In this document: in pieces, positions 625-18,068 of the stretch
How positions within the stretch are numbered: position 1 is the first letter of the stretch
Layout: the number at the start of each line of letters is the position of its first letter
Virus record (IMG/VR): IMGVR_UViG_2711768014_000006
DNA: 44,064 bases
Reading direction: 5' to 3' (one strand)
Source: a virus
Lineage: Duplodnaviria > Heunggongvirae > Uroviricota > Caudoviricetes
The notes under the pieces: generated by a model
Told to the model about the DNA's origin: nothing
Database searches by the model: none
What the model saw: only the letters and a program-made list of their open reading frames with translations
Position numbers and translations under genes: made by a program

Positions 625-628
625 ATCA

Positions 629-1403: not shown

Positions 1404-1588
1404 TTTCTTTTCTTCCTATCAATTTGAAATTATTAACTTTTAGTGTTGTCAGCAACCATTGATCCACAATAGACAAAAGAAAGATGTTTTTTTTGCTTTA
1501 CATGAAGCAGAAGTGGATCAATACTTATATCAAACTTGATAACTAAGTTTAGTTATCAAATTTCGTAACTTTTTAGGATAGATGAATC
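1404..1588. promoter_or_regulatory. Early operator/promoter region between repressor and ner
   Basis: AT-rich 185-bp divergent intergenic region with a perfect palindrome TTGATAACTAA-GT-TTAGTTATCAA (1536-1559) and inverted repeats TTGATCCAC/GTGGATCAA (about 1461-1469 and 1513-1521). Confidence 0.5.
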
Positions 1589-1819: not shown

Positions 1820-1821
1820 TT

Positions 1822-3909
1822 ATGTTTGCTTCAGTTAAAGAACTGGTTGGATTACCGGGGATGCCGGGAACGGAGCAAGGCGTTCGCTATTCAATCAGGA
1901 AGTATGCAACCAGCGAAACCAGCAGACGCCGCAAGAAAGGCGCTAAAGGTTTTGAATACAGCATTGACTGTTTACCTGAAGTGACACAGCAGGCATTACG
2001 CGAACGTTATGCCCTGCAACTGATGACGCAAAAAGCCGATGAATCACCGGCTCCGGTGGTGACAAAGGCCAGACGCTCGTCTGCCGTGGTTGATGCGGTG
2101 GAGGCATATCGCGGATCACCACAACTGATGGTCGAACGCCTCAATGCCCTGACTGAAAACCAGCGCCAGGTGGCAGACGCACGCATTGCGATCGTCAGTG
2201 AGGTGCTGAAATTCACGCAACAACCCGGTTTCAGCTGCGCTAAAGCTATCCGGTTCCTCGTTAACAGCCTGGCACGATCACAACTGGACGAGCGCATTGT
2301 GGCAATGGTTGAGACGGCGAACGCCAAAAAGGGAAACAGCCGCGCGTTGAGTGAAATCACGCTGAAACGCTGGATTGCGGCCTTTAACAAGGCACAGAAC
2401 GCCGCTGAACGCCTGCTTTTACTGGCACCGGGTAAACGCCAGGAAATAAAAGCCGAAGATATTAACTGGCTGCCCGAATTTCTGGCGCAGTATCGCCAGT
2501 CAAACGGCCGACCAATGACCGAGGCTTACGAGGATTTTGTTGCTGAATGGCAGCACCGGCACGCTGATGAGCCTTATATGCTCGATATCATGCCCTCTTA
2601 TGACACCATTCGCCGCGCAATGAAGAAACTGCCGGAAGTGGTGAAACAAAAAGGCCGGGTAACTGGCAGTGAATACCGTCAGCTTGAGGGATTCACGCGC
2701 CGCGACTGGTCCAGAATGCCGGTGAATTATGTCTGGATTGGTGACGGTCACGGCATGAAGCTGAAATGCGCGCACCCGGTTCACGGGCGGCCATTCGCAC
2801 CGGAAGTGACCTTTGTTATCGACGGTGGCACGCGCTTTGTGGTGGGCTGGAGCCTTGACCTGGCTGAAAATGTTTTCGCCGTAGCCGGTGCCATACAGCA
2901 CGGTATTCGCCATCATGGCAAACCGTTTCTGTATTACTCGGATAATGGCTCCGGGGAAACCGCCGACGTCCTGGATAAGGAGATTGTGGGGATACTGCCA
3001 CGACTGGGGATTAATCACCCGACAGGGATTGCCGGTAATCCGCAGGGACGGGGCATTATCGAACGGCTTAACCGCACATTACCGATGCGCATAGCCCGTA
3101 AATACCGCACCTATTTCGGGAAAGGAGCAGATCGCGAGACGTTACGTAAAACCAACCGCGATTTACGCTCGGCATTCAGTGCCCTGCAACAGGGCAAACG
3201 GCTGAACGCCCGGCAGCAGTCAGCGATGCGTGATTTACCGTCCTGGTCTGAACTGATTGATGCCATTCGTGACGGTGTTGAGTGGTACAACAACCGGCCG
3301 CACGATGAATTACCCATGAAGCCGAACGGTAAACATTACAGCCCGGCGGAGTTCAGAAAAAAACGCCTGGCGGAAGAGGACACGGAAATTGAATGGCTGT
3401 CCGATGTTGAACTGCGGGATATGTTCCGGCCGATGGTGGAGCGCCCTGTAAGACGCTGTGAAATACGCTGGCTGAATAATATTTACTACGCGCCCGAGCT
3501 GCGTGACGAGCATGGCCGTAAGGTACTTATCAGCTATGACATTCATGATGCCGAACGAATTACCGTGCGCCGCCCGGATGGCAGCGTGATTTGCGAGGCG
3601 GTATGGGACGGCAATAAACGCGAAGCCTTCCCTGTCAGCGCGGAATACTACAAACAGCAGCAGCGCCTTAAAGGCATGCGTAAACGCGCAGAGGAAAAAA
3701 TCCGTGATGCCGAGGATGAGGTTGTCAACGTGCTGGAGCACAAGCCGCAGGAGCCCTGGCTGGAAAACATATACCGCCCTGTGGGTAATACGGTGACCGT
3801 TCAGCAACCGGTCGCTGACGATGAACCTGATGAAGAATACGAGCGTAATTTCCAGCGGGGATTGCAACTGCTCGAAGCGAAATTAAAAGAAAGTGATCCG
3901 CTGGCCTGA
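1822..3909 (+). CDS. Mu-type DDE transposase A
   Basis: 695-aa ORF directly after ner; length and position match MuA. Confidence 0.9.
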   Translation: MFASVKELVGLPGMPGTEQGVRYSIRKYATSETSRRRKKGAKGFEYSIDCLPEVTQQALRERYALQLMTQKADESPAPVVTKARRSSAVVDAVEAYRGSPQLMVERLNALTENQRQVADARIAIVSEVLKFTQQPGFSCAKAIRFLVNSLARSQLDERIVAMVETANAKKGNSRALSEITLKRWIAAFNKAQNAAERLLLLAPGKRQEIKAEDINWLPEFLAQYRQSNGRPMTEAYEDFVAEWQHRHADEPYMLDIMPSYDTIRRAMKKLPEVVKQKGRVTGSEYRQLEGFTRRDWSRMPVNYVWIGDGHGMKLKCAHPVHGRPFAPEVTFVIDGGTRFVVGWSLDLAENVFAVAGAIQHGIRHHGKPFLYYSDNGSGETADVLDKEIVGILPRLGINHPTGIAGNPQGRGIIERLNRTLPMRIARKYRTYFGKGADRETLRKTNRDLRSAFSALQQGKRLNARQQSAMRDLPSWSELIDAIRDGVEWYNNRPHDELPMKPNGKHYSPAEFRKKRLAEEDTEIEWLSDVELRDMFRPMVERPVRRCEIRWLNNIYYAPELRDEHGRKVLISYDIHDAERITVRRPDGSVICEAVWDGNKREAFPVSAEYYKQQQRLKGMRKRAEEKIRDAEDEVVNVLEHKPQEPWLENIYRPVGNTVTVQQPVADDEPDEEYERNFQRGLQLLEAKLKESDPLA

Positions 3910-3991
3910 AATAAAAAAATAACCCGAGGGGTGACTCAGGTTATTTGAGGTTTCAGTCTCGGAGAATGCTGTCTCAAGCGAGGTGAATAAT

Positions 3992-4924
3992 ATGACCGAT
4001 ATTAACGATGTAATCAAGACCATTGATGAACTTATTGATGGCGGCGTACTGACGCAGTATGCCATCGCCAGAGAGGCGGGAATTTCCGACGGCACATTAT
4101 CGGCTTTCCGTAAGGGAAAATATAAAGGCGATAACGCTGCTGTGGCTGCTTCCCTGCGCTCCTGGTATGAGAACTGGAATAAACAAAGCGCACTGCCGGA
4201 ACCGCCGCAGTTTGTGGAAACTCAGACAGTCCAGGAGCTGCGCGCACTGTTTCAGGCGGTTCGCCTGATGGGCTGTATTAACGTTATTGTGGGCGTACCG
4301 GGTGTGGGTAAAACGGCCACTGCCCGTAATTACTGCCAGGAGCAACCAAACACCTGGATGATCACCCTGTCACCCGCGCACTCCAGCGTCACGGAGTGTC
4401 TGCTGGAGCTGGCCGATGCGCTGGGGATTGATTACACCCGCGCGAACAAAGGGGCATTATCCCGCGCCATCCGCCGTCGCCTGATGGGAACGCGTGGACT
4501 GGTGATTGTGGATGAGGCGGATCATCTTGGTATTGACGGTCTGGAGCAACTCCGGGCAATTCAGGACGCCACGGGGATCGGGATGGTGCTTATTGGTAAC
4601 CCGCGCGGATTGTTTAAAGGTGGACGCCGCGCCTTTGATGATTTATCGCGCCTGTTCAGCCGTCTTGCCCGTACAAAACAACTTCGCAAGGCCAAAAAGG
4701 CGGATGTGCTGGCCATTGCCATGGCGTGGGGGATCAGTGGTGAGGCCGAGCTGGCCGTCATGCAGGCTATCGCTGAAAAGCCGGGAGCGTTACGCGTTCT
4801 GACACATACGCTTAACCAGGCGTGGCTCACCGCCAGCGGTGAAGGCGCGGCGCTGACAGAAAAACATATTAATGCGGCCTTTAAAGAGGTTTATACCAAC
4901 CCTGAATTACTCTCACAGGTGTGA
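3992..4924 (+). CDS. Mu B-like ATP-dependent target DNA activator
   Basis: Walker A motif GVPGVGKT; N-terminal HTH region resembles MuB; ATG at 3992 preceded by GAGG. Confidence 0.85.
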   Translation: MTDINDVIKTIDELIDGGVLTQYAIAREAGISDGTLSAFRKGKYKGDNAAVAASLRSWYENWNKQSALPEPPQFVETQTVQELRALFQAVRLMGCINVIVGVPGVGKTATARNYCQEQPNTWMITLSPAHSSVTECLLELADALGIDYTRANKGALSRAIRRRLMGTRGLVIVDEADHLGIDGLEQLRAIQDATGIGMVLIGNPRGLFKGGRRAFDDLSRLFSRLARTKQLRKAKKADVLAIAMAWGISGEAELAVMQAIAEKPGALRVLTHTLNQAWLTASGEGAALTEKHINAAFKEVYTNPELLSQV

Positions 4925-4926
4925 TT

Positions 4927-5148
4927 ATGGCGGTATTTAATATTCCTGATATTTACGGACGCTTTTACCTGGTTAATTTCGATAACGTGAAGGTGATTTC
5001 ACTGGCCGAAAATAAAGAATGTGGCGATTTACTTTTTGAATTTAATGACCGCACACGAATGGTGATATCTGCCGGACTTGATCGCGAAGGTGCGACAGAA
5101 GTTTACAGCGGAATATGCCGTTCTGTTGGTGCGAAACAAGTCAGCTAA
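4927..5148 (+). CDS. Hypothetical early protein (Mu kil position)
   Basis: 74-aa ORF immediately after B, translationally coupled. Confidence 0.45.
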   Translation: MAVFNIPDIYGRFYLVNFDNVKVISLAENKECGDLLFEFNDRTRMVISAGLDREGATEVYSGICRSVGAKQVS

Positions 5149-5160
5149 ATGAGGTGTTAT

Positions 5161-5415
5161 ATGAATATGCAATCCTGCGGTAACAAAATGAATTTATTCG
5201 ACTCCCTGAACAGCGCGCGCCGTCTGACCGAACTTGCCGGTGCGGTACTGGAACGCAGTAAGCGCTATCCGCAACGTTTTGCACTGAAAACCACGCCGCC
5301 GGTAGGCAACGTGCAGGGAACCGGTGAAATTGAAATCACCATACAGACCAACGGCCTGCGCCGCCGTGTGAAGGCCACCCGCATCAGCGGCTGCACGGTT
5401 TACTGGGAGGTGTGA
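5161..5415 (+). CDS. Hypothetical early protein
   Basis: ORF with ATG at 5161 following AGGTG. Confidence 0.4.
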   Translation: MNMQSCGNKMNLFDSLNSARRLTELAGAVLERSKRYPQRFALKTTPPVGNVQGTGEIEITIQTNGLRRRVKATRISGCTVYWEV

Positions 5416-5416
5416 G

Positions 5417-5698
5417 GTGAAAAAAAATCTCATTGCATGGGCGTGGTCGAGTGGTCTTATTGAGTTTGGTTACGTCCTGCCGGAAGGTGCATTGCCGATA
5501 GTTGCCGGAAAGCCTGCCACGGTACGGCATGTGATTGAGGTTATGGCGCGTCATGGACGTGATGAACAGGAGCAGTTACTGGTTCCGGGGATACCGGAAG
5601 CGGTGACGGAGGAAGAAGCCTTTAATGCCATGATTCGGTTCTGCCGTGAGGTTAGACGCCGGGTCAGTTATCCAAACAGAACGAGGACCAGAGGATGA
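5417..5698 (+). CDS. Hypothetical early protein
   Basis: GTG start 6 nt after GGGAGG; 93 aa. Confidence 0.45.
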   Translation: MKKNLIAWAWSSGLIEFGYVLPEGALPIVAGKPATVRHVIEVMARHGRDEQEQLLVPGIPEAVTEEEAFNAMIRFCREVRRRVSYPNRTRTRG

Positions 5699-5967
5699 GT
5701 AAAGTCGTACGCATTATTTTCGAATACAAGGAAGATGTTATCTGCAAAAACTCTGATGGCAGCACGCACAGAGGGGTAAGTCTGGATATACGTTCAACCG
5801 GAATAAAGAAGAAAGATAATGGACCCGCCATGATTTTTGGGGTGGTTATGCTGGCAGAAAGCAGAAACTTCGCAGAGTTTGTGGCAATGAAAGCCAGTGC
5901 ATTCATGAAAGACAGAGGCATGGCTTCCGGGGTTATTAACGGTAATGAATTTAATCAACAGGGGTAA
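5695..5967 (+). CDS. Hypothetical early protein (tandem paralogue 1)
   Basis: Starts MSKVVRIIFEY; resembles the next ORF. Confidence 0.45.
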   Translation: MSKVVRIIFEYKEDVICKNSDGSTHRGVSLDIRSTGIKKKDNGPAMIFGVVMLAESRNFAEFVAMKASAFMKDRGMASGVINGNEFNQQG

Positions 5968-5971
5968 TTCC

Positions 5972-6265
5972 ATGAGCAAAGTACGCGTTATTTTTGAATT
6001 TAATCATGTTTCGCATGACGAAAAGTTGGCAGGCAATGACTGTGTTGAAGTGCATGAAAAGATTGGAGTGGATGTGAAAACAGAACGTGATACGGATAAC
6101 AGGCCGACGTCACTCTGTGACGTTTATGCAAGTATTCTCCAGTATCACAGTCCTGCAATTATTCAGTTTCTCTCAGCGGAATTTCAGGCATCTGCACAGT
6201 CTTTTGGAGCGGATGCCATCATTAAACGCCACCGCGTGCATAAAGCATCAGGCACACTGCAATAA
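5972..6265 (+). CDS. Hypothetical early protein (tandem paralogue 2)
   Basis: Starts MSKVRVIFEF; resembles the preceding ORF. Confidence 0.45.
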   Translation: MSKVRVIFEFNHVSHDEKLAGNDCVEVHEKIGVDVKTERDTDNRPTSLCDVYASILQYHSPAIIQFLSAEFQASAQSFGADAIIKRHRVHKASGTLQ

Positions 6266-6276
6266 GGAAAAACAAA

Positions 6277-6807
6277 ATGGCTAAACGCGTTACAAAATTA
6301 AAGGCCGCAGCCGAGGCGGCACCGCAGACCCGGGAAGAAGTCAGCCGTGATATCCGCACCCTGGGAGATATTCAGCGAGAGGCGCTGCGCCTGGAAACGG
6401 CGATGAATGACGAAGTGGCAGAAATCACCGCCCGTTATACGCCGCAGATTGAAAATCTTAAAAAGCAAATCAAAGTGCTTTTTAAAGGGATTCAGGACTG
6501 GTGCAAAACCAACCGTGATGAGCTGACGAACGGCGGCAAAACCAAAACAGCCAATCTGACCACCGGAACGGTGTCATGGCGGCTGGGAACGCCATCATGC
6601 AGCGTCAGCCGTGATGTGGAAGGTGTGATTGAAATGCTGCGCCGTATGGGGCTTGAGCGTTTCATCCGCACGAAAGAGGAAGTGAACAAGGAAGCCGTCC
6701 TGGCGGAGCCGGATGCTGTGAAAGGCATTGCCGGTATCAAGGTGAATAAAGGCGCTGAAAGTTTTTATGTCGAGCCTTTTGAACAGGACGCCGGACTGAA
6801 TAAATAA
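6277..6807 (+). CDS. gam: Gam-like host-nuclease inhibitor (DNA end-binding protein)
   Basis: 176-aa product with Mu Gam-like sequence and position. Confidence 0.85.
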   Translation: MAKRVTKLKAAAEAAPQTREEVSRDIRTLGDIQREALRLETAMNDEVAEITARYTPQIENLKKQIKVLFKGIQDWCKTNRDELTNGGKTKTANLTTGTVSWRLGTPSCSVSRDVEGVIEMLRRMGLERFIRTKEEVNKEAVLAEPDAVKGIAGIKVNKGAESFYVEPFEQDAGLNK

Positions 6808-6952
6808 CACCGCATTAATCAATTAAATATCACTTCATTTTAATTATGGCGCTCGCGTCAGGGGACTGCTTGCGCCTGAAAACAGAAAATAAGGGTTAAG
6901 AAATATGAAATACGTTTATATCGTCATTAATAATGTGGTGGGGAAATAAATC

Positions 6953-7486
6953 ATGATTGATGCAAAAGTGCTTGAAGGGGTTAAAAACTGGCTGTGTATT
7001 TATGGCCGCCTGACCTGCGGTGTACTGGCTGAAAAAATGAATATGCCGCCATCCTCCATGGTTTATTTTCTGCGTGATGCGGTTGATGCAGGCGTGCTGA
7101 CGGAATGTAACGGTTTTTATGATATTCCGCGTCCCCGCCCGGTGCAGCCGGTTCGTCGCAAATGCAGCCAGGAATCTGCGGCTGATGATGTTCAGTGGTG
7201 CGGCTTCAGAAAATCCCTGCCATGGATTGAGGGGCATGATATTCCGTCGATGGCGTGGGAATTTGCTCAGGGCGTTCTGACCTGTGAAACCGTTTATGTG
7301 GTGGCTGAAGTTGATGAGCAGGCCATGAAAGAAGGCGTGCCCCAGTTTGTGATGGCGTATATCGACATACGCCTGGGCGTCATTATCTGCGGTTTAAGCG
7401 GCTGGAATATCACTGAACATGTTCTGCGCTACCTGATTGTTGACCGGACAGCAGCGCCTGCCGGGATATCTGCGGAGGTGGCGTAA
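6953..7486 (+). CDS. Hypothetical protein
   Basis: 177-aa ORF with RBS, after a 145-bp AT-rich intergenic gap. Confidence 0.5.
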   Translation: MIDAKVLEGVKNWLCIYGRLTCGVLAEKMNMPPSSMVYFLRDAVDAGVLTECNGFYDIPRPRPVQPVRRKCSQESAADDVQWCGFRKSLPWIEGHDIPSMAWEFAQGVLTCETVYVVAEVDEQAMKEGVPQFVMAYIDIRLGVIICGLSGWNITEHVLRYLIVDRTAAPAGISAEVA

Positions 7487-8001
7487 TGTTCTTTAAAACA
7501 TCAAACCCTTCCGCGCTGGCTGCGTGGCAAAAATACCAGCAGGACTGCCAGAAAGTTAAGGATGAGGCAAAACGCCTTGAGGCCGTGCTGAATGTTGCGT
7601 GCCGGTCGGTATTTGTATCCGGTATCAGTGGATTTTACTTTAAGGGACTGCGTTTTACGGAGGACAAATATCCTTTTCATCGCGACTTATGGCGAAAACC
7701 GACTGCGTCGAATGGCTGGAGCTGCACACCGCGCACATCACGTATCCCTAAAACCCTGCGTGTTGCCTCTGATGAACTGAACAGTCTGTGGCGTGAATAT
7801 TCGCCCGTCACGTATGCCAGAACCGATGCGCTGTTGTTCTGGTTGGGTATTGATTTCTCGGCAATCCTGTTTGGCCCTGTGAAGTGGTTCTGCGTTGACG
7901 ATGTGATTTACCTTCAGTGCGGCGTAAAACCCGCAAAACAGAAAATGACCGAAATACTGTCTGATGAGTTTTATGCTGCTGAAAAGCGAGTCAGGGGGTG
8001 A
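7486..8001 (+). CDS. Hypothetical protein
   Basis: 171-aa ORF, translationally coupled. Confidence 0.5.
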   Translation: MFFKTSNPSALAAWQKYQQDCQKVKDEAKRLEAVLNVACRSVFVSGISGFYFKGLRFTEDKYPFHRDLWRKPTASNGWSCTPRTSRIPKTLRVASDELNSLWREYSPVTYARTDALLFWLGIDFSAILFGPVKWFCVDDVIYLQCGVKPAKQKMTEILSDEFYAAEKRVRG

Positions 8002-8004
8002 TGC

Positions 8005-8556
8005 ATGATGAAATTACAACCCATGGGACTAAAAGGTCGCGCCCCCGCTCATGTCCGTCCGTGGACACCTGAAGAAGATGCGCTGCTGATTGCGCTTTAT
8101 TCATCCACCCCGGTTAAGGATATTGCTGCCAGAATAAAAAGAACTGTCTGGGCTGTATATAACCGGACTGGTGTATTGCGCAGTTCATACCCGGAGTTAC
8201 TGAAATATAAACACCCAAGATTTACACCTGATGAAGATAAGTTTATTCGAAAAAATGCCAGAACAATGACCTGCCAGCAAATGGGAGAATATCTCGGACG
8301 TAATAAAGATTCTGTCAGATGTCGGGCAGGAATGATTGGTGCTGGATTAACAAAGTGCGGAGAGTTACGCCCCGGCACGCGCATATCTGATGATGATGTA
8401 CGTCTTATACGTGAGCTGCGTGATTCCGATTACCCACGCCGTCTGTCATTCCGGGAAATTGGCGAAAAGTTTGGAATATCTGAACATTCTGCTCACGCAG
8501 TTTATTACCGTCGCCGGACTGCCGAGGACGCTGTATTACGGGAGTTAACGCCATGA
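8005..8556 (+). CDS. Putative DNA-binding protein (two Myb/SANT-like W/F-TP-E-ED repeats plus C-terminal HTH)
   Basis: Motifs WTPEEDALLIALY and FTPDEDKFIR, then LSFREIGEKFGISEHSAHAVYYRR. Confidence 0.5.
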   Translation: MMKLQPMGLKGRAPAHVRPWTPEEDALLIALYSSTPVKDIAARIKRTVWAVYNRTGVLRSSYPELLKYKHPRFTPDEDKFIRKNARTMTCQQMGEYLGRNKDSVRCRAGMIGAGLTKCGELRPGTRISDDDVRLIRELRDSDYPRRLSFREIGEKFGISEHSAHAVYYRRRTAEDAVLRELTP

Positions 8557-8885
8557 TAACGACCTTATTTGTTGAATCAGATGAACCTCTTGTGTGTGCC
8601 GCCGGAATGCCGCTCTGTGGCGGAACGCTGACCGGCGTTTATTTCGGGGATTTGCGCGGTTATCCCTGGCATTCACTGGATGACGCATTTCCGCCTGATA
8701 TGGAGGCTGTCGTGCTGATTGTTCAGTATGGTGACCAACAGGAACTGCGCATCGGCCATATGGGGTATGAAGGCTTTTTTATTGATGAAGAAACCGGAGC
8801 CTGCCTTGAAGATGAGGACGGACAGGTGACGCACTGGTGCCATCTTTCGGCCTTGCCGGAATTACAGGGGATACATAATGGATGA
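8553..8885 (+). CDS. Hypothetical protein
   Basis: 110-aa ORF overlapping neighbours. Confidence 0.5.
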   Translation: MITTLFVESDEPLVCAAGMPLCGGTLTGVYFGDLRGYPWHSLDDAFPPDMEAVVLIVQYGDQQELRIGHMGYEGFFIDEETGACLEDEDGQVTHWCHLSALPELQGIHNG

Positions 8886-9021
8886 GCAAATTGTTGAATG
8901 TCCCACCTGTGGAAATGAGGACCCGGAGTATCTGAAAGAGTGCCCACATTGTGGTGAGATAAAATGTAACCACTGCGATATGGGCGACGACACTGCATGT
9001 ATAAATTGTGAGGATGAATAA
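8878..9021 (+). CDS. Small zinc-ribbon protein (four CxxC pairs), 47 aa
   Basis: MDEQIVECPTCGNEDPEYLKECPHCGEIKCNHCDMGDDTACINCEDE; start overlaps the previous stop (ATGGATGA); below the ORF-track length cutoff. Confidence 0.4.
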   Translation: MDEQIVECPTCGNEDPEYLKECPHCGEIKCNHCDMGDDTACINCEDE

Positions 9022-9022
9022 T

Positions 9023-9310
9023 ATGGAAAAAGAAATCAAATTTGCGCCTAAATCTATCGACGAAGAACTGGCTAAAATCGGCATGCTTGAACGTATGCGG
9101 GACATTATCGAATATGCGATAAAAGAAAATCTTGCAGCCAGAGAAGCCCTTTTGATAATGGAGCGGGAGATTAACCTGATTAAGGATGCTGTATCTCTGG
9201 ATAATAAAATAGCCCGCGAGGAATACGTTCGCCGTAGGCTCGGTGTTGATGGTTCAGCAATTCTTACATCTGAACATTATGCAAAAATTTTTAATCTTTT
9301 TCAGCGGTAA
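9023..9310 (+). CDS. Hypothetical protein
   Basis: ATG at 9023 preceded by GAGGA; 95 aa, predicted helical. Confidence 0.45.
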   Translation: MEKEIKFAPKSIDEELAKIGMLERMRDIIEYAIKENLAAREALLIMEREINLIKDAVSLDNKIAREEYVRRRLGVDGSAILTSEHYAKIFNLFQR

Positions 9311-9530
9311 TCCCCATACAGGCCCGGAGATTGTCGAAATGCCAGTCGGTATTAATATATGAGCCATCCTGGATATCTTCTGCATTTTCCGGGGTAGAGT
9401 TTTTTTGAGCGAGATTGATAATATGTATTGCCTCCTCACGGGAAATCAGCCCCTTATCGAACAGGGTTACCATAAGATTTCCAGCCATTGTGAATGCGGC
9501 AACATCAAGTGCATTTTTTATATCTGACAT
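9291..9530 (-). CDS. Hypothetical protein encoded antisense to the early operon
   Basis: 79-aa minus-strand ORF with AGGA RBS; its 3' end overlaps the 3' end of 9023..9310 by 20 bp. Confidence 0.4.
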   Translation of the reverse strand: MSDIKNALDVAAFTMAGNLMVTLFDKGLISREEAIHIINLAQKNSTPENAEDIQDGSYINTDWHFDNLRACMGITAEKD

Positions 9531-9600
9531 AGATTTTTCCTTTTATGTTAATTGACATGGCGGTGCGGTAACACCGCCCATTTTTTATGGAGCCACGATA

Positions 9601-10113
9601 ATGAATCGCGCTTCCCTGATTACCTTAATACATGTCGCAAAACGCGATCTACAGCTTGACCATGATACCTATACATCCGCGCTGCTGGCAGCCACCGGCA
9701 AATCCAGTTGCCGTGATATGTCACCCGGTGAGTTATCCCGCGTGCTGGATGTTTTCAAAAAACGCGGTTTTAAAGTGCGTCAGAAGCCGGTTAACCGGGC
9801 CTTAAAACCGGGTACGGTGACCGCCAAAATTCGCGCCATCTGGAAAGTGATGCACCGGCAGGGATTTATCTCTGATGGCGGGGAAACGGCCCTTAACCGC
9901 TGGGTGAAATCGCAGACGGCCGCGCAGAACGACGGCGAAGGTGTGGCTAACTGGCAGTGGCTGGAGCAACAACCCGCGCTGGCCTCTGATGTGCTGGAGC
10001 GTCTCAAACGCTGGCACCGCCGCAAAATGCTGGCAGCCCTGGATATGTCGGAACGTGCAGTGATGAGTTATGAGCGTGTTTGCAGGCTGTATGAAAAATC
10101 ATTCCCCCGTTAA
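9601..10113 (+). CDS. GemA-like regulatory protein (Mu gp16 family)
   Basis: 170-aa ORF at the end of the early operon, position and sequence consistent with Mu GemA. Confidence 0.65.
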   Translation: MNRASLITLIHVAKRDLQLDHDTYTSALLAATGKSSCRDMSPGELSRVLDVFKKRGFKVRQKPVNRALKPGTVTAKIRAIWKVMHRQGFISDGGETALNRWVKSQTAAQNDGEGVANWQWLEQQPALASDVLERLKRWHRRKMLAALDMSERAVMSYERVCRLYEKSFPR

Positions 10114-10118
10114 CCCCA

Positions 10119-10148
10119 AATCCCGCCACAGCGCGGGATTTTTATTTT
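10119..10148 (+). terminator. Rho-independent terminator at the end of the early operon
   Basis: Hairpin TCCCGC-CACAGC-GCGGGA followed by TTTTTATTTT. Confidence 0.6.
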
Positions 10149-10183
10149 AAACTTGCCCTGTGTAATGATGACCGGAGGCGGGT

Positions 10184-10606
10184 ATGGCTGAAACACAGAT
10201 GAGCATGTTTGGTGACAGCGAACAGCTGCACGCGCTGATTGACCGTCTGGATGATATTCCTGATGATGAGCTGAAAAAGAACTGGCCCGGCACGCTGCGG
10301 GACCTGGTTGATGTGATCAGTGCTGAACTGCACCGTCAGGGGATTGAACCTGCTCAGGCGGGAATGCTTGCCCGTAAGGTTGCAGCCGCACAGGCCGGGT
10401 ACATGGGCGGGCGTGGTTATTATCTCCCGGTCGGTGAATCCCTTTTCACCGAACTGCGCAATAATGAAATTTTTTCCCGCTGGAGCCAGGGCGAAAAAAT
10501 TGAAACCCTGCGCCGCCACTACCAGATGTCAGAGACGCAGATTTACTCCGTTATCCGCAACCAGCGTCGCCTGCATCAGGAACGCACGCAGCCACGGCTT
10601 TTCTGA
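10184..10606 (+). CDS. Mor/C-family transcriptional activator
   Basis: 140-aa product with Mor/C-like sequence; only one family member is present. Confidence 0.8.
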   Translation: MAETQMSMFGDSEQLHALIDRLDDIPDDELKKNWPGTLRDLVDVISAELHRQGIEPAQAGMLARKVAAAQAGYMGGRGYYLPVGESLFTELRNNEIFSRWSQGEKIETLRRHYQMSETQIYSVIRNQRRLHQERTQPRLF

Positions 10607-10677
10607 TATTCCGCAAATCCTGCCCCCTTTTCCTCACGGTTACGCTGACTCAGAGAACACCATGAGACAGCGTAACA

Positions 10678-11178
10678 ATGCCAAAACTCCCCGCACCCCT
10701 GCGTAAAAAGCTGATTGCCCTTGTTCTGGCCGGAGCCGGGACGTTCACCATTGCCACGCACTACACCGGCTACTGGGAAGGGAAAGAAAACACCACGTAC
10801 ATTGATCCCACCGGCACCCCCACCATCTGTTACGGCCATACCGGCCCGGATGTGAAACCGGGGATGACAAAAACTGATGAAGAGTGTCTGGAGCTGCTGG
10901 AAAAGGACATGAAATGGGCCTTTGCGGCTATCGATCGTCATGTTCAGGTGCCGCTTACCCGTGGTCAGACGGTGGCGCTGGCCTCCTGGATTTTCTGGGC
11001 CGGTGAAACGAACTTTCGCAACTCCACGCTCCTGCGCCTTATCAATGCCGGGCAGATGCCCGCGTCCTGTAAGCAGTATATCCGCTGGATTTATTCAAAG
11101 GGGGTAAAACTCCCCGGTCTTGAGGCCCGCCGTTCGGCGGATGAATGGTTATGTCGTTACGATTTGCCGAAAGTCTGA
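10678..11178 (+). CDS. Endolysin (phage lysozyme, probable signal-anchor-release type)
   Basis: N-terminal hydrophobic segment LIALVLAGAGTFTIA followed by an E...D...T lysozyme catalytic region (EGKENTTYIDPTGTPTICYGHT). Confidence 0.85.
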   Translation: MPKLPAPLRKKLIALVLAGAGTFTIATHYTGYWEGKENTTYIDPTGTPTICYGHTGPDVKPGMTKTDEECLELLEKDMKWAFAAIDRHVQVPLTRGQTVALASWIFWAGETNFRNSTLLRLINAGQMPASCKQYIRWIYSKGVKLPGLEARRSADEWLCRYDLPKV

Positions 11179-11251
11179 ACCGCTTCTGGCGACCGCTCAT
11201 GATTGCGCTGCTGTGTGCCGTTGTGCTGCTGCGGGGTGTGCTGTGTCTGCG

Positions 11252-11641
11252 GTGAACAATCCCTTACCGGCCCTGATTGCCGGAGGCTGTATGGCGGCGC
11301 TGGGGGTGATGAGCGTGCTGGCTGCCGTGGTATGGGGAATGCACCAGAAGACGCAGCGCCTTGAGGACAATAATCATGTGCTTGTGCGTGAACGGGACGA
11401 AGCCCGTCTGGTGCTGGCAAACCAGCAACGCACCCTGCAACTCATTTCACAAATCAGCAAGGCGGCCACGAATGAAAAACAGCAGAACATGCAGCACAGC
11501 GAGGAACAGCAGAGCATTGTCCGCCGGTCACTGGCAACGGTGCCTGCTGCCGCTGTGCCTGTGCCTGATGATGTGGCTGACCGGGTGCGGCGGGCCGTCT
11601 GTGAAATACGTGCCGGTGAAGCCGGTGCCGATCCCCGCTGA
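11252..11641 (+). CDS. Putative i-spanin (Rz-like); start uncertain
   Basis: Transmembrane segment LPALIAGGCMAALGVMSVLAAVVWGM followed by a predicted coiled coil. Confidence 0.4.
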   Translation: MNNPLPALIAGGCMAALGVMSVLAAVVWGMHQKTQRLEDNNHVLVRERDEARLVLANQQRTLQLISQISKAATNEKQQNMQHSEEQQSIVRRSLATVPAAAVPVPDDVADRVRRAVCEIRAGEAGADPR

Positions 11642-11843
11642 ATGGCTGGCTGACTGCCTGGTCCCTCCCGCGCCGCAGCCGTTCACGTTTGGTGCATCGG
11701 TCACTTACAACCTGCAACTGCTGGCGGTGATTAAAAACTGCAACGTGGACAAGGCCAGCATCCGCCGTCTGGAGACACAGCGACAGCATGAATTTACTGA
11801 TATGGCCGGAACGACTGCTGTTCCGGCAGGAAAGACGAAGTAA
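11472..11843 (+). CDS. Putative o-spanin (Rz1-like lipoprotein), starts inside the i-spanin gene in the +1 frame
   Basis: Signal-peptide-like region ending in lipobox LTGC, proline-rich mature part. Confidence 0.45.
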   Translation: MKNSRTCSTARNSRALSAGHWQRCLLPLCLCLMMWLTGCGGPSVKYVPVKPVPIPAEWLADCLVPPAPQPFTFGASVTYNLQLLAVIKNCNVDKASIRRLETQRQHEFTDMAGTTAVPAGKTK

Positions 11844-11853
11844 GGAAAAAGGT

Positions 11854-12081
11854 ATGGATGATTCAGATTGTGCTCAGGCAGTCATGGAGCGTGCAACAGA
11901 ACGCGCCCTTTGTGACCGGCTGACACGTAAGCGCCGGGTGGCGGAGACACCGGGCAGGCGTGTATGCGCGGACTGCGGGGGTGACATTCCGGCTGCCCGT
12001 CTGGTTGCCGTGCCGGATGCCATCCGTTGTGTGAACTGCCAGAACATCATGGAGGCCGGTCATGTGGGTCAGCATCGTTAA
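11854..12081 (+). CDS. TraR/DksA-family C4 zinc-finger protein
   Basis: CADCGGDIPAARLVAVPDAIRCVNCQ motif; ATG at 11854 after AAGGAAAAAGG. Confidence 0.6.
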   Translation: MDDSDCAQAVMERATERALCDRLTRKRRVAETPGRRVCADCGGDIPAARLVAVPDAIRCVNCQNIMEAGHVGQHR

Positions 12082-12373
12082 AGATTATGTCGTGCCGATC
12101 CTGTCGGCAACGGCCACAGCCGGGGGGATCTTCATGGCGCTGATGCGCAAAACCTTTGTCCCCCGCGAGGCCTTTGAAAAACTCTCCGACCGGGTTGAGC
12201 GGGTGGAGAGCCGGATTTCCGGCCTGCCCACGCAGCAGGAGGTGAACAGACTCAATATCGAAATCACCACCCTGCGCGGTGAGCTTAAGGCCACCAATGC
12301 CACCCTGAAATCCGTCTCCCATCAGAACGAACTGCTGCTGGAGCAGGCTGTAAGGAAAAAACACAATGAGTGA
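12062..12373 (+). CDS. Hypothetical membrane/coiled-coil protein
   Basis: N-terminal hydrophobic segment, GGAGG RBS. Confidence 0.5.
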   Translation: MWVSIVKDYVVPILSATATAGGIFMALMRKTFVPREAFEKLSDRVERVESRISGLPTQQEVNRLNIEITTLRGELKATNATLKSVSHQNELLLEQAVRKKHNE

Positions 12374-12656
12374 TTTCATTACTGAAGATCAGCGTCTTGT
12401 CATTCTGCGGTCGCTGGCGGATTACAACGGCGAACTGGGCGAATCCGTGCTTCAGGACTGCCTGGATGATTACGGTCACCGCGTGTCCCGCGACACCGTT
12501 CATACCCACATTGCCTGGCTTGCCGAGCAGGGACTGGTGCGTAAGCGCACGCTTGTTAACGGTTATTTCATCGCTGAACTGACCGGCCGGGGTCAGGATG
12601 TGGCGGAAGGCCGCGCCACCGTTCCGGGTGTGAAGAAACCACGCGCAAGGGGGTAA
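12366..12656 (+). CDS. Mu gp26-like protein
   Basis: 96-aa ORF in conserved position before gp27 and terminase. Confidence 0.5.
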   Translation: MSDFITEDQRLVILRSLADYNGELGESVLQDCLDDYGHRVSRDTVHTHIAWLAEQGLVRKRTLVNGYFIAELTGRGQDVAEGRATVPGVKKPRARG

Positions 12657-12658
12657 CG

Positions 12659-13240
12659 ATGGATAAGCCAGCGCGTGGCCGTGTACGCAAGGTGGATTTG
12701 CTCCCCGACAGCATCCGTAAGCCGCTGCTGGAAATGCTGCGTGAAAAACGTCTGACGCAGGTCCAGATCCGCGAGGAAATCAACCGTCTGATCCGTGAAG
12801 CAGGTCTGCCGGAAGAGCAGCAGCTCTCACCGGCGGCCATCAGCCGGGAAGCCTCCCGTAATGAGCTGATTGCCCGTAATCTGCGTGATTTACGCGAGCA
12901 GACAAAAGCCATGATGGCCGAACTGGGGGATAAGCCGACCGGTGAAACCACGGCACTGATTCTGGAGATGTCCCGTGCCCTGATGTACCGCCGTCTGCGT
13001 GCCGCCACCGAATCCCTGAACAGCGACAGCGATGTGGATATGCGCCTTATTAAGGACATCCTCCTGTCGGCACAGCGTGCAGAAAGTGCCGCCGAGCGCA
13101 GCATTAAGCGTGAAAAAGAAATCCGGGCCGCATTTGCTGAAGAGATGGCGAATGCGGTCACCGATGAGTTGCGCGGCGTGGATGGCATGAGCGAGCAGAT
13201 CGAATTCCGTATCAGGCAGATGCTGCTGGGTAAGGCGTAG
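12659..13240 (+). CDS. Mu gp27-like protein (putative DNA-binding/small terminase-like)
   Basis: 193-aa ORF immediately upstream of the terminase region. Confidence 0.6.
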   Translation: MDKPARGRVRKVDLLPDSIRKPLLEMLREKRLTQVQIREEINRLIREAGLPEEQQLSPAAISREASRNELIARNLRDLREQTKAMMAELGDKPTGETTALILEMSRALMYRRLRAATESLNSDSDVDMRLIKDILLSAQRAESAAERSIKREKEIRAAFAEEMANAVTDELRGVDGMSEQIEFRIRQMLLGKA

Positions 13241-13250
13241 GAGGTGAATC

Positions 13251-13499
13251 ATGGCAACAGATAACCGCTCACTGATGAGCAGTGCCCATCAGAAAGCATT
13301 CAGTCTTGCAACACAGTTACCTCCTGAAACCATAAAGGTATGTCGTGAGTTGACTGAACTCAGCATTGCCGGGGAAATATCCCTGGAACAACTGCATTCG
13401 CTGCTGGCAGAGGCTGCCACTGATGAGTTGAGCGGCGTGGACGTGATGACTGAAGAGCTTGAGTCCCGAATCAAAAGCATTCTGACAGGTAAAGCATGA
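13251..13499 (+). CDS. Hypothetical protein; C-terminus duplicates the C-terminus of 12659..13240
   Basis: ...ELSGVDVMTEELESRIKSILTGKA versus ...ELRGVDGMSEQIEFRIRQMLLGKA. Confidence 0.45.
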   Translation: MATDNRSLMSSAHQKAFSLATQLPPETIKVCRELTELSIAGEISLEQLHSLLAEAATDELSGVDVMTEELESRIKSILTGKA

Positions 13500-15163
13500 T
13501 GAACAAAGCCAGAGAAACGTCGCCTTCACTGATGCAAATGACGCCTCCCCGCAAAATTGATCTGTCAGGTGAAAAAGCCCTGCTGGGCGTGGATGTGCCG
13601 GACAGCCTTGATTTGCCCGGTGATATGCCGGTGTTTCTGGATTATCAGGCCCGCTGGTTTGCAGATGAAAGTCAGGTCTGCATCGCGGAGAAATCCCGCC
13701 GCACCGGTCTTACCTGGGCGGAAGCCGGGCGTAACGTCATTACTGCTGCAAAACCGAAGCGTCGTGGTGGCCGCAATGTGTTTTATGTGGGATCAAAGCA
13801 GGAGATGGCGCTGGAATATATTTCTGCCTGCGCGCTGTTCTCCCGTGCCTTTAACCAGCTGGCAGATGCTGATGTGTATGAGCAGACATTCTGGGATCGG
13901 GATAAAAAAGAAGAAATTTTGACCTACATGATCCGCTTTCCGAACAGTGGATTCAAAATTCAGGCATTGTCTTCCCGTCCGTCAAACCTGCGCGGCCTTC
14001 AGGGGGATGTGGTGATTGATGAAGCCGCGTTCCACGAGTCACTGGATGAGCTTCTCAAGGCGGCAATGGCGCTCACTATGTGGGGCGCGCGCGTGCGTAT
14101 TATCTCCACGCATAACGGCGTCGATAATCTGTTTAATCAGTACATTCAGGAAGCCCGCGAGGGGCGCAAGGATTACAGCGTCCACCGCATAACCCTGGAT
14201 GATGCCATTGCGGACGGGCTGTACCGTCGTATCTGTTACGTCACCGATCAGGAATGGTCACCGGAAAGCGAGCAGAAATGGCGTGATGATCTCTACAAAA
14301 ACGCCCCGACCCGTGAGGATGCCGACGAGGAATACGGCTGTATCCCGAAAAAATCCGGCGGTGCCTATATCCCCCACGCGCTTATTGAAATGGCGATGAT
14401 CCGCGACATCCCGATTCTGACGTTTGAAGCCCCGGACAACTTCATCAGCCGTGCCGCATGGCTGCGTGAATCGGAAGTTTTAACCTGGTGTGAAGAACAT
14501 TTAAAACCGCTTTTAGAGAAATTAAATCCCCGTTCCCGCTTCAGCTTCGGGGAAGACTTTGCCCGCACCGGTGACCTGTCCTGCTTTGTGCTGCTGGAAA
14601 TCACCGAATCCCTGGCAAAGCGCGAGGTGTTTCGCGTGGAGCTGCGCAACCTGCCGTATGCCCAGCAGGAACAGGTGATGATGTACATCCTGACCCGCGT
14701 TCCGGCGCTGGTCGGTGCGGCGTTCGACGCCACCGGTAACGGCGGCTATCTGGCAGAGGCCGCACTGCTGGCCTTTGGCCCGGACATCATCGACTGCGTG
14801 ATGTTGTCGCCGAAGTGGTACGGCGAGTGGATGCCAAAACTGAAAGCCGAGTTTGAAGATCAGAATATCCTCGTCGCCCGCCATCAGACCACGCTTGATG
14901 ATTTGCGCCATGTGAAGGTAGTGAATGGTATCCCGCAAATCGACAAGGGGCGCACGAAGGACCAGAACGCAACGGCTGCGAACGCCCGCCGCCATGGTGA
15001 TTTTGCCGTGGCGCTCTGTATGGCAAACCGGGCGTCATACATGGAGGGCTTCATCCTGGATGAATCAGCCTGTCAGGCGCTACAGGAGCGGTCGCGGGCA
15101 ATGGAGGGCGGTTATCGTGATGACGATGAGGCATATCATGAATTTGATCGGGGGGGCTGGTAG
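13496..15163 (+). CDS. Terminase large subunit (Mu gp28-like)
   Basis: 555-aa ORF in conserved position before the portal gene. Confidence 0.85.
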   Translation: MMNKARETSPSLMQMTPPRKIDLSGEKALLGVDVPDSLDLPGDMPVFLDYQARWFADESQVCIAEKSRRTGLTWAEAGRNVITAAKPKRRGGRNVFYVGSKQEMALEYISACALFSRAFNQLADADVYEQTFWDRDKKEEILTYMIRFPNSGFKIQALSSRPSNLRGLQGDVVIDEAAFHESLDELLKAAMALTMWGARVRIISTHNGVDNLFNQYIQEAREGRKDYSVHRITLDDAIADGLYRRICYVTDQEWSPESEQKWRDDLYKNAPTREDADEEYGCIPKKSGGAYIPHALIEMAMIRDIPILTFEAPDNFISRAAWLRESEVLTWCEEHLKPLLEKLNPRSRFSFGEDFARTGDLSCFVLLEITESLAKREVFRVELRNLPYAQQEQVMMYILTRVPALVGAAFDATGNGGYLAEAALLAFGPDIIDCVMLSPKWYGEWMPKLKAEFEDQNILVARHQTTLDDLRHVKVVNGIPQIDKGRTKDQNATAANARRHGDFAVALCMANRASYMEGFILDESACQALQERSRAMEGGYRDDDEAYHEFDRGGW

Positions 15164-16752
15164 TGGGACGCATCATTGATACTGACGGAAAACCTTTCTC
15201 CTTTGACCCGGAGATGCAGAGTGCCGCGCTGGATATTCCGCAGATTGCCAGCCGTTATATTGAACATCCGGCTTCGGGTATCACCCCGAACCGGGCGGCG
15301 CAGTGCCTTCGCGGGGCTGAACGTGGCGATCTGATTGCCCAGTCCGATCTGGCCGCTGATATTGAAGAAAAGGACACCCACCTTTTTGCGGAGCTGGGCA
15401 AGCGACGTCTTGCCATTCAGGGGGTGCCATGGAGTATTGAGCCGCCACCGAACGCCAGCGCGAATGAGAAAAAGGACGCGGAAATGCTCGACGAATATCT
15501 GCATTCCGCAGACTGGTTTGATGCCATGCTGTTTGACGCCACGGATGCCATCCTGAAGGGCTATTCCTGCATGGAAATTGAGCACGGGATGCTCGGTAAA
15601 ATGCACATCATCCGCGCCATCCGCTGGCGTGACAGCGGGCATTTCTGCCTTAACCCGGATGATTTGAGCGAACTGCGGCTGCGTGACGGCAGCCATGCCG
15701 GGGTGGCGTTTCAGCCCTTTGGCTGGATAGTGCATCAGTCGCGTTCACGCACCGGCTACGGTGGTGCGACGGGGCTTGTCAGAACGCTTATCTGGCCGTT
15801 CATTTTCAAAAACTATTCCGTGCGCGATCTGGCGGAATTTCTGGAGGTGTACGGCCTGCCAATGAAGGTCGGGAAATACCCGTCCGGGGCAACACCGGAG
15901 CAGAAAAGTGCCCTGATGCGGGCGGTGATGGATATCGGGCGACGTACAGGCGGGATCATCCCGGCCGGGATGTCGCTGGAGTTTCAGGCGGCAGCGAACG
16001 GTCAGGCCGATCCGTTTGAAACCATGATTTCGTGGGGTGAGCGTTCCATCTCCAAAGCAATACTCGGCGGCACGCTGACCACAGAAGCCGGAGACAAAGG
16101 CGCGCGCTCGCTGGGTGAGGTGCATAACGAGGTGCGCCGGGAAATCAGGGATTCTGATTTACGCCAGCTGGCTGCAACCCTGAACCGCGATCTGGTGTAT
16201 CCGCTGTATGCCCTGAACACCGCCCACGCCATTGATATCCGTCGCCTGCCGCGTATCTGTTTCCAGACCAAAGAACCGGGGGATATCACCAAAATAGCCA
16301 GTGCGGTGATGCAACTCAGTGCGGGGATGGATATTCCTGATCCCTGGGTACGGGATCAGACCGGTATTCCACAGCCCACGCCCGGTGAAGCCATATTCCG
16401 TGTCCGTCAGAGCAGTAATGAACCGGCCATGCCTGACAGGGAAACGCTACCGGAAAAACAGGAAAAGACAGAACAGACGGCGCTTTCAGCCCGACTGCCG
16501 GAAGCGAAAAACACGCCGCGTGATGAACTGGACGACATGGGGGACGCGGTGCCTGCCCGCCGCTTACAGGAGGCCATCGATCCGGTGCTGGAGCCGGTCA
16601 TTGATGTCATCAGAACGCGGGGGCTGGCGGAGGCACTGGCAGACCTGCCTGCCCTTTACCGTGAAATGGATGATTCCCGCCTGATGACGCTGCTCAGTGA
16701 TGCCATGTTTGCTGCGGAAATGAAGGGGATGCTGGATGGCTCAGGGGATTGA
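15163..16752 (+). CDS. Portal protein (Mu gp29-like)
   Basis: 529-aa ORF after terminase. Confidence 0.85.
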   Translation: MGRIIDTDGKPFSFDPEMQSAALDIPQIASRYIEHPASGITPNRAAQCLRGAERGDLIAQSDLAADIEEKDTHLFAELGKRRLAIQGVPWSIEPPPNASANEKKDAEMLDEYLHSADWFDAMLFDATDAILKGYSCMEIEHGMLGKMHIIRAIRWRDSGHFCLNPDDLSELRLRDGSHAGVAFQPFGWIVHQSRSRTGYGGATGLVRTLIWPFIFKNYSVRDLAEFLEVYGLPMKVGKYPSGATPEQKSALMRAVMDIGRRTGGIIPAGMSLEFQAAANGQADPFETMISWGERSISKAILGGTLTTEAGDKGARSLGEVHNEVRREIRDSDLRQLAATLNRDLVYPLYALNTAHAIDIRRLPRICFQTKEPGDITKIASAVMQLSAGMDIPDPWVRDQTGIPQPTPGEAIFRVRQSSNEPAMPDRETLPEKQEKTEQTALSARLPEAKNTPRDELDDMGDAVPARRLQEAIDPVLEPVIDVIRTRGLAEALADLPALYREMDDSRLMTLLSDAMFAAEMKGMLDGSGD

Positions 16753-18067: not shown

Positions 18068-18068
18068 C

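Follow-up and report, generated by a model that had tools for sequence, protein, structure and literature searches.

The gene 13-14-15 block of a Mu-like Escherichia coli prophage contains a conserved yet exchangeable gp14-gp15-stem-loop unit upstream of gemA

The gene 13-14-15 block of bacteriophage Mu is dispensable ("semi-essential") and lies at the distal end of the early region, just before gemA and mor. In the RefSeq record of Mu (NC_000929) the order of genes is Mup13, Mup14, Mup15 (complement 7896..8162) and gemA, with Mup15 overlapping Mup14 by 62 bp and lying 70 bp from gemA, and the same layout is present in SfMu (SfMu_16) and Mu_3F6. A literature search returned no paper that gives a function to Mu gp13, gp14 or gp15, and the gem operon has been described as uncharacterized at the molecular level (PMC12407980). 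Here we describe the corresponding segment of the IMG/VR virus record IMGVR_UViG_2711768014_000006, a stretch of 44,064 nucleotides (hereafter the window) that contains a Mu-like prophage of E. coli. Three small open reading frames (ORFs) are found upstream of gemA in this prophage, namely a 47-aa ORF at 8878..9021 (+), a 95-aa ORF at 9023..9310 (+) and a 79-aa ORF at 9291..9530 (-), the products of which we call gp13-like, gp14-like and gp15-like. An earlier note on this DNA had drawn attention to these ORFs, and their positions, the ribosome-binding site of the minus-strand ORF, the four CxxC motifs of the first product and the exact 20-bp convergent 3' overlap of the last two genes (9291..9310, as given by the ORF coordinates) are all confirmed. 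The same note had taken the backward-facing gene as a departure from Mu. This is not the case, as RefSeq Mu has gp15 on the complementary strand, overlapping gp14 and upstream of gemA.

By sequence comparison and gene order the region is the prophage's copy of the Mu gene 13-14-15 block, a layout that is already known. At the nucleotide level, blastn against phage genomes aligned window positions 8896..9243 with Mu 7528..7875 and with D108 at ~72% identity, with SfMu also matched across gp13-gp14. At the protein level, gp13-like is 88% identical to gp13 of Mu, D108 and SfMu over a 41-aa Cys-rich core in which 8/8 Cys are kept, and gp14-like is 49% identical to Mu gp14 over 94 aa and 56% identical to D108 gp14. 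The relationship of gp15-like to its counterparts is more remote and is seen by profile comparison, where hhalign matched the 79-aa family profile to residues 1-54 of Mu gp15 with a probability of 93% (E 3e-7) and to a 119-aa minus-strand ORF of D108 with a probability of 95%. Family assignments are consistent with these relationships. The gp13-like protein matches phrog_5584 (E 3e-26), gp14-like matches phrog_6075 (E 5e-44, 95/100 positions) and gp15-like matches phrog_32893 over its full length (E 1.3e-45, 79/82 positions), while the counterparts encoded on the minus strand of Mu and D108 are assigned to phrog_8747 and phrog_38610, respectively, and each of these two proteins also cross-matches phrog_32893.

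The 79-aa minus-strand ORF is a genuine gene that is under purifying selection and that represents a diverged allele of Mu gp15. On its own strand it is preceded by AAAGGAAAAATCT-ATG, which provides a plausible Shine-Dalgarno sequence. Nei-Gojobori analysis of six variants of a 901-bp region with 74 variable sites indicates that all three ORFs remain open in six of six variants, with ratios of nonsynonymous to synonymous substitution (dN/dS) of 0.26 for gp13-like, 0.18-0.23 for gp14-like and 0.23-0.28 for the minus-strand ORF, the latter falling in the same range as its neighbors. The three plus frames antisense to it exhibit dN/dS values of 0.55-2.0 and contain 1-6 stops each. An exhaustive HMMER search of 1.84 billion representatives recovered nine clusters of gp15-like homologues at 37-87% identity that have in common D9, F13, N18, L23, G27 and H64 together with a C-terminal WH(L/F)DNL motif. 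The protein is acidic (isoelectric point (pI) 4.5, net charge -7; family pI range 4.3-5.8), and an AlphaFold2 (AF2) model predicts an all-helical, soluble bundle of four helices (predicted local distance difference test (pLDDT) 80, predicted template modeling score (pTM) 0.67), with the N-terminal helical hairpin conserved and the C-terminal half variable in the family. Database copies P0005 and P0008-P0010 carry a frameshift around residues 43-53 and then continue in the frame of a 61-aa ORF at 9254..9439; these copies could reflect either gene decay or sequencing errors in a short homopolymer region.

The strand on which this gene lies has been annotated differently in the public Mu records. 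The updated GenBank entry AF083977.1 replaces gp15 with a 55-aa plus-strand ORF, Mu_54 (7960..8127 +; L001 2933..3100), while RefSeq NC_000929.1 (L010 497..763) retains gp15 on the minus strand, antisense to Mu_54. The GenBank annotation would be consistent with coding on the plus strand, or the stretch could be non-coding altogether, and a codon-position comparison of Mu with SfMu is of no help in choosing a strand as it involves only five differences. Against such readings, no ATG-initiated plus-strand ORF of at least 30 aa occurs in window positions 9311..9530, where stops are present in all three plus frames, and the dN/dS values of the plus frames set against those of the minus ORF lead us to reject them. 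Furthermore, homology among the minus-strand products extends over Mu, D108, the window type and another seven clusters, and Mu_54 is without a PHROG family while the Mu minus ORF matches phrog_8747 over 88/88 positions (E 7e-60). We consider it very improbable that the minus-strand ORF is not a gene. The comparative evidence favors RefSeq, with gp15 on the minus strand, over GenBank, with Mu_54 on the plus strand, and in our view settles this conflict.

The partner of this gene, gp14-like, starts at an ATG located 1 nt after the gp13-like stop, with an alternative GTG start at 9008 that would yield a protein of 100 aa. Its AF2 model (pLDDT 86) contains four helices, one of which is 35 residues long. 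Significant matches for gp14-like are absent from Pfam, PADLOC, PDB sequences and PDB folds, and neither the 95-aa nor the 79-aa protein has a match in Pfam. Structural comparison of the gp15-like model with PDB and BFVD, and of the gp14-like model with PDB, gave best fold matches with E values of at least 0.4, which were discarded as generic helical similarities. The gp15-like profile repeatedly gave weak matches to the helical lid of Hsp70 among PDB sequences, the best of which (E 0.027) is below significance and was likewise set aside. A tblastn search of the phage collection with the 79-aa protein found a single Mu-like insert in a Shiga toxin (Stx) phage record and nothing else, and a profile scan of genome contigs with alignment A2 gave no match. 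Overall, similarity searches yield no assignable function for gp13-like, gp14-like or gp15-like. In E. coli genomes, the Prokaryotic Genome Annotation Pipeline (PGAP) annotates the 95-aa and 79-aa products as hypothetical proteins (RefSeq WP_000409993.1 and WP_001280088.1).

The gp14 and gp15 genes form a linked unit with a GC-rich stem-loop. We examined 12 lineages, comprising the window, Mu, D108 and SfMu together with the contexts of seven diverged gp15-like and two diverged gp14 proteins (contexts P0011-P0017, P0022 and P0024; loci include L013, L016 and L049-L054). Each of the 12 has a homologue of gp14, a gp15-like gene and a GC-rich stem-loop in combination. In each of them the gp15-like gene is the sole gene on its strand, and in each it overlaps the gp14 homologue (as identified by blastp) convergently at the 3' end, by 4-98 bp. 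The divergent neighbor on the other side is gemA in eight lineages and also in L053, as judged by the first codons present in the spacer; in L051 and L052 this neighbor is not gemA itself. In the window, the spacer between the gp15-like and gemA starts measures 70 bp (9531..9600), holds both Shine-Dalgarno sequences as well as the stem-loop, and can be aligned with its equivalents in Mu, D108 and SfMu. Its length is 68-74 bp in 10 of the 12 lineages (149 bp in L051). There are no variable sites among its 70 positions in the six variants, where approximately six would be expected at the regional rate (74/901).

The stem-loop has the sequence GGCGGTG-CGGTAA-CACCGCC (9559..9578) followed by CATTTTTTAT, so that the entire element extends over 9559..9588 (+) as defined by a terminator scan and RNA folding. 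It has a 7-bp stem with six GC pairs, a 6-nt loop and a hairpin energy of -12.4 kcal/mol, and with its GC-rich stem, short loop and following T-tract it is scored by a simple scan as an early-strand intrinsic terminator. The distance between the stem-loop and the gp15 start is 28-33 nt (50 nt in L052), and that to the next start is 18-22 nt; in L051 the stem-loop is farther from both. The stem GGCGGTG/CACCGCC is present in nine lineages (window, Mu, D108, SfMu, L013, L016, L049, L053 and L054), in which the loop is CGGTAA, CGGCAA or TTGCAG. A different stem sequence is present at the same position in L050, L051 and L052, as well as in the alternative cassette of L017 discussed below, and the occurrence of other stem sequences at this place in L050, L051 and L052 indicates that structure is conserved and not only sequence. 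Folding of the early-strand RNA (9536..9596) also indicates that the complement of the gp15 Shine-Dalgarno sequence can pair with the gemA Shine-Dalgarno sequence around the stem-loop, and in L050 (2427..2500) this outer stem is 8 bp in length (GUGUCUCC/GGAGAUAC). Such pairing could hide the ribosome-binding site of gemA when transcripts read through, or it may be no more than an incidental by-product of two divergent ribosome-binding sites.

How these genes would be expressed can be considered from their arrangement. The gp13 and gp14 genes belong to the rightward early operon, their start and stop codons being tightly coupled, and thus should be expressed from the early transcript. In contrast, gp15 faces the early promoter, which means that it cannot be expressed from that promoter and needs a leftward transcript of its own. 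Since the ~30 nt between the stem-loop and the gp15 start also hold its Shine-Dalgarno sequence, which leaves too little space for a promoter, this transcript would probably initiate at or to the right of the stem-loop, within the 5' end of gemA. Rightward early transcription runs antisense through the whole of gp15, so that gp15 expression is expected to be opposite to lytic early transcription. Strong lytic early transcription would silence gp15 through the collision of polymerases and through antisense RNA, as convergent transcription units can reasonably be expected to interfere with each other, and gp15 would thus be made mainly while the early promoter is repressed in the prophage state and be turned off after induction. 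The stem-loop with its T-rich tail would partially terminate or attenuate early transcription ahead of gemA-mor, decoupling gemA-mor from the early operon, and alternatively or in addition it could serve as a 5' structural element of the divergent mRNAs. The stem-loop lies after ~290 nt of untranslated early-strand RNA and directly before the gemA ribosome-binding site. Two earlier observations fit the decoupling role. The GenBank entry AF083977 places a "semi-early promoter" at 8151..8217, which is the Mu gp15-gemA spacer, and constitutive expression of the gem operon in lysogens is stated in the title of Paolozzi & Ghelardini 1992 as cited in PMC3820752. We lean slightly toward this overall model, in which a 13-14-15 block has a leftward gp15 transcript that is silenced by early read-through and a stem-loop that functions as an attenuator.

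A number of observations weigh against this model. Scanning for promoters did not reveal one for gp15, as a consensus scan gave a single weak match within gemA (9691..9662, 9/12) and promoter-scan match counts are not above those of shuffled sequence; manual as well as automated searches around the spacer similarly revealed no convincing sigma-70 promoter for either divergent gene. The scan also found no minus-strand terminator. The T-tract is strong in the window, L054, L016 and L052 and weak in Mu, D108 and SfMu, and L049 has its T-rich tail on the opposite side of the stem-loop. Terminator function, and the orientation in which it would act, may therefore not hold for all lineages. If termination at this position were fully efficient, expression of Mor from the early promoter would also be blocked. 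The frameshifted database variants described above (P0005, P0008-P0010) argue that the gp15-like gene can decay. Finally, nine of the 12 lineages have the same stem sequence with differing loops, a pattern that a protein-binding palindrome would fit as well. This last point leads to a different explanation, in which gp15-like regulates the divergent gemA-mor genes and the perfect palindrome GGCGGTG-N6-CACCGCC is an operator for gp15 or for another phage protein instead of a structure formed in RNA. Divergent genes with a fixed spacer of ~70 bp are typical of a regulator and its target, the 7-bp half-sites are unchanged in nine lineages while loop and flanks diverge, the spacer is free of variable sites, and the GenBank "semi-early promoter" covers exactly this stretch in Mu. 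However, gp15-like proteins are acidic throughout their family with no helix-turn-helix or other DNA-binding signature found, and the C-terminal halves of the window, Mu and D108 types of gp15 are entirely different while the palindrome is the same. Moreover, stems of differing sequence are found opposite gp15 proteins that are related to one another. The alternative stem sequences at the same place in L050, L051, L052 and the cassette of L017 also point to structure rather than sequence as the conserved property. We consider an operator function to be rather improbable.

The region occupied by these genes varies extensively among closely related prophages. We compared 32 IMG/VR loci with a GemA 84-100% identical to that of the window, among which three types of slot were found. 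The first has the 79-aa gene and the stem-loop upstream of gemA. In the second there is a minus-strand gene for a 136-aa DUF2513-like protein (Pfam E 7e-5; PGAP DUF2513) with its own stem-loop of other sequence, and in the third both minus-strand gene and stem-loop are absent and plus-strand ORFs abut gemA. The second type is exemplified by L017, where the DUF2513-like gene (1526..1936, -) shares a convergent 39-bp overlap with a plus-strand gene of 102 aa, and a separate GC hairpin of the cassette precedes gemA; this cassette occurs in prophages with a 100% identical GemA. Homology of the window to L017 (97-99.6%) ends at 8868 and returns at 9582, and these breakpoints define an exchangeable cassette at 8869..9581 that comprises gp13-like, gp14-like, gp15-like and the stem-loop. 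A smaller unit of exchange is apparent from L054 and L055, which are otherwise window-like prophages that have a 92-aa protein related to Mu gp15 in the gp15 slot. They match the window at 88-96% up to ~9268-9270 and again from 9535, with the Mu-type 92-aa gp15 in between, which delimits a unit at 9269..9534 consisting of the gp15 allele and the overlapping gp14 tail. The GC content of the cassette is ~41-46% as compared with 50-59% in its flanks. Among 5426 complete E. coli genomes the window-type allele is present in 14 and the DUF2513 type in 6, and ~212 genomes match part of the query 8800..9700, mostly the gemA end or the left end only. These comparisons show the unit to be accessory, exchangeable and moron-like in its population behavior. 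On the other hand, gp15-like is retained together with gp14 in Mu, D108 and SfMu, which indicates that it is an old resident of the region and not a recent insertion. The swapping of alleles suggests an exchangeable accessory or specificity factor that possibly works with gp14.

The earlier note had described convergent overlapping small genes as typical of toxin-antitoxin, abortive-infection or anti-defence morons. This proposal stands to the extent that the slot is accessory, exchangeable and AT-richer than its flanks, while the proposed function finds no support from sequence or structure. Specifically, gp14-like and gp15-like, with or without gp13-like, could constitute such a system, in which one product would be toxic or would inhibit a host defence, the other would neutralize or regulate it, and convergent transcription would set the ratio of the products. 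Neither gene is found without the other, and within the overlap their alleles are exchanged jointly, although this co-occurrence may merely reflect their physical overlap. Prophages that are nearly identical differ in what the slot contains, the AT content of the segment exceeds that of its flanks and other minus-strand cargo occurs nearby (the DUF2513 gene and a 140-aa ORF between gemA and mor in L024), but the pair is also present in Mu itself. The small size and acidity of gp15-like resemble those of many anti-defence proteins, and in a Pseudomonas transposable phage opposite-strand overlapping genes beside the early operon confer superinfection exclusion (PMC9936078). However, gp13-like, gp14-like and gp15-like are without a match in PADLOC, Pfam, PDB or BFVD. 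For PADLOC-DB 2.0 (E <= 0.1) this is true of the three window proteins, Mu gp15, the D108 ORF and the DUF2513-like alternative. Type II toxin-antitoxin genes are co-directional and co-transcribed, which is not so for gp14-like and gp15-like, as these are convergent and on opposite strands. The short hydrophobic toxin of type I systems is also not seen, as both proteins are charged and helical, the AF2 model of gp15-like is a soluble bundle and its longest hydrophobic run, as read from the sequence, is ~15 residues and is broken by N and T. This interval of Mu is not known to confer an addiction or abortive-infection phenotype. Remote homology searches and structure prediction instead recovered homologues of Mu gp13, gp14 and gp15 with no toxin-antitoxin or defence fold, so that all three proteins have ordinary Mu orthologues in the same order (gp13 88% and gp14 49% identity, gp15 hhalign probability 93%), an outcome that the earlier note had itself held to be contrary to its proposal. 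We regard a toxin-antitoxin, abortive-infection or anti-defence function as unlikely. A related and similarly doubtful possibility is that gp14, gp15 and the stem-loop constitute a self-contained two-protein accessory switch, in which gp15 made in the lysogen binds an allele-matched gp14 or a host target and thereby excludes or counters a phage or defence system, or gates read-through into gemA-mor. If this were true, gating of gemA-mor read-through would time the lytic cascade, and allele swapping at the overlapping 3' ends would represent diversifying selection on a specificity interface.

The remaining member of the block, gp13-like (8878..9021, +; MDEQIVECPTCGNEDPEYLKECPHCGEIKCNHCDMGDDTACINCEDE), is predicted to be a double zinc-ribbon mini-protein of 47 aa with eight Cys arranged in four CxxC motifs. 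Zinc-ribbon matches in Pfam are sub-threshold only (Zn_ribbon_LapB E 0.005, DZR E 0.03). Its start overlaps the stop of an upstream 110-aa ORF (ATGGATGA), and PGAP leaves the ORF unannotated in E. coli genomes that carry the prophage, although it is conserved. The gene is separable from the gp14-gp15 pair, as other genes are present upstream of gp14 in L013 and L016, and genes 13 and 14 are separated by an additional gene in SfMu. A further match of the zinc-ribbon core is to the last 41 residues of the 231-aa family phrog_6418 (E 2e-20), which indicates that the ribbon is fused to a larger protein in some phages. The phrog_6418 protein is approximately the combined size of Mu gp12 and gp13, the genes of which overlap by 14 nt in Mu.

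Downstream of the spacer are gemA (gp16 family; 9601..10113, +; Pfam GemA E 2e-28), which PGAP annotates as "gp16 family protein" and which is divergent from the gp15-like gene, and a gene for a Mor-family transcription activator (10184..10606, +; Pfam Mor E 7e-31). A second terminator-like hairpin, AAATCCCGC-N6-GCGGGATTT followed by TTATTTT, lies between gemA and mor at 10118..10141 (terminator scan; fold z-score -3.2), whereas these two genes overlap in Mu. Relative L024 (2508..3296) has an insertion of ~690 bp between gemA and mor that contains a minus-strand 140-aa ORF, with copies of the hairpin region at both sides; the gemA-mor junction is thus a second hot spot for backward-facing cargo. 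Lysozyme and lysis genes directly follow the Mor-family gene (10606..10678), without a Mu-style middle operon or C gene between them. These are likewise missing between mor and the lysis genes in Mu-like phages of Mannheimia (PMC4553209). An Rfam search of 8400..10700 found nothing relevant.

The Mu-like prophage as a whole is 38.6 kb in length and spans ~609..39250 of the window, with homologues of Mu transposase A, B and Gam upstream of the three small genes. Its ends were set by comparison with E. coli strain 600029, in which a 99.7% identical copy is present at another chromosomal site, splitting an SgrR-family gene; the presence of such a copy at a different site indicates a recently mobile Mu-like transposable prophage. 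Classical Mu end sequences do not occur in the window. Repeated (C/T)ATTTGATAC(C/T)G motifs that look like transposase-binding sites are present near the ends (~620..800 and 39130..39250). Farther to the right, inverted repeats at 32765..32908 and 33974..34116 (87% identity) bracket tail-fibre and tail-fibre-assembly genes and are adjoined by a recombinase-family gene (34178..34750), an arrangement that resembles an invertible host-range switch of the G-segment kind. The segment from the invertase to com/mom (34836..37510) encodes a 684-aa DUF6645 protein together with small DUF1378 and DUF826 genes, and is possibly right-end cargo. PGAP annotates a minus-strand "tRNA-OTHER" between head-morphogenesis genes of L056 (18069..18148 in equivalent window coordinates), and ARAGORN finds no tRNA at this site in the window. 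Present in the host flank are ssrA, the gene for tmRNA (tag ANDENYALAA), and an ORF that at 160 aa has the size of smpB (41997..42359, -, and 42574..43056, -), with only a few kb separating the prophage from ssrA.

In sum, the arrangement is the standard Mu gene 13-14-15 layout, which is already known, and identical proteins are listed in RefSeq as hypothetical. The new comparative detail is modest: a linked unit was recognized, its stem-loop was seen to be conserved in structure, the boundaries of the swaps were mapped and the conflict between annotations was resolved. The conserved yet exchangeable gp14-gp15-stem-loop unit provides a handle on the uncharacterized end of the Mu semi-essential early region and also on how gemA-mor expression separates from the early operon. 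In Mu-like prophages of E. coli, backward-facing cargo genes are concentrated in a hot spot around gemA, which would be a reasonable place to seek functions expressed during lysogeny.

The unit can also be compared with other described systems. The Pseudomonas transposable phage Fc02 is also a Mu-like phage in which a gene opposite in strand to the early operon overlaps an early gene (olg1 / gene 10), and one of its overlapping genes is transcribed in the lysogen (PMC9936078). The Fc02 genes differ in that they are located where the early operon begins, beside ner and the repressor gene, and not before gemA, and their exclusion activity has been demonstrated, whereas the window genes are likened to them by arrangement only and not by any claim of sequence similarity. 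The morons of temperate phages, which are accessory genes placed between conserved ones, resemble the gp15-like unit in their presence, absence or replacement among relatives, here among prophages with 85-100% identical GemA, in a lower GC content than the flanks, in an orientation that is independent of the host operon and in a flanking hairpin. Morons carry their own transcription signals, whereas for gp15-like our scans identified neither an own promoter nor an own downstream terminator.

D108 and Mu_3F6 encode a 119-aa minus-strand protein (VUD37876.1, phrog_38610) in the same slot and orientation, with a 53-bp overlap with gene 14, a 69-bp spacer and the stem-loop. D108 records annotate nothing in the gap that holds this ORF. 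The D108 protein is 36% identical to gp15-like over the N-terminal helical hairpin and differs from it in having an acidic N-terminal extension of 30 aa and an unrelated C-terminal half. The uncharacterized Mu gp13 (E14) and gp14 (E15) of the semi-essential early region have the same order and coupled starts as in the window. A 19-aa N-terminal extension is present in Mu gp13 and absent from gp13-like, and the upstream neighbor is gp12 in Mu as compared with a 110-aa DUF551-like ORF in the window. For the uncharacterized Mu gp15 (Mup15, NP_050619.1, 88 aa), direct pairwise similarity to gp15-like by BLASTP is not significant, the C-terminal half is unrelated with the WH(L/F)DNL motif being of the window type, the overlap with gene 14 is 62 bp versus 20 bp, and the PHROG assignments are 8747 versus 32893. 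Mu gp15 and gp15-like are nevertheless alike in position, in orientation, in the 3' overlap with gene 14 and in the spacer of ~70 bp to gemA with the same stem-loop, and their N-terminal ~50 residues are homologous (cross-match to phrog_32893, E 6e-4).

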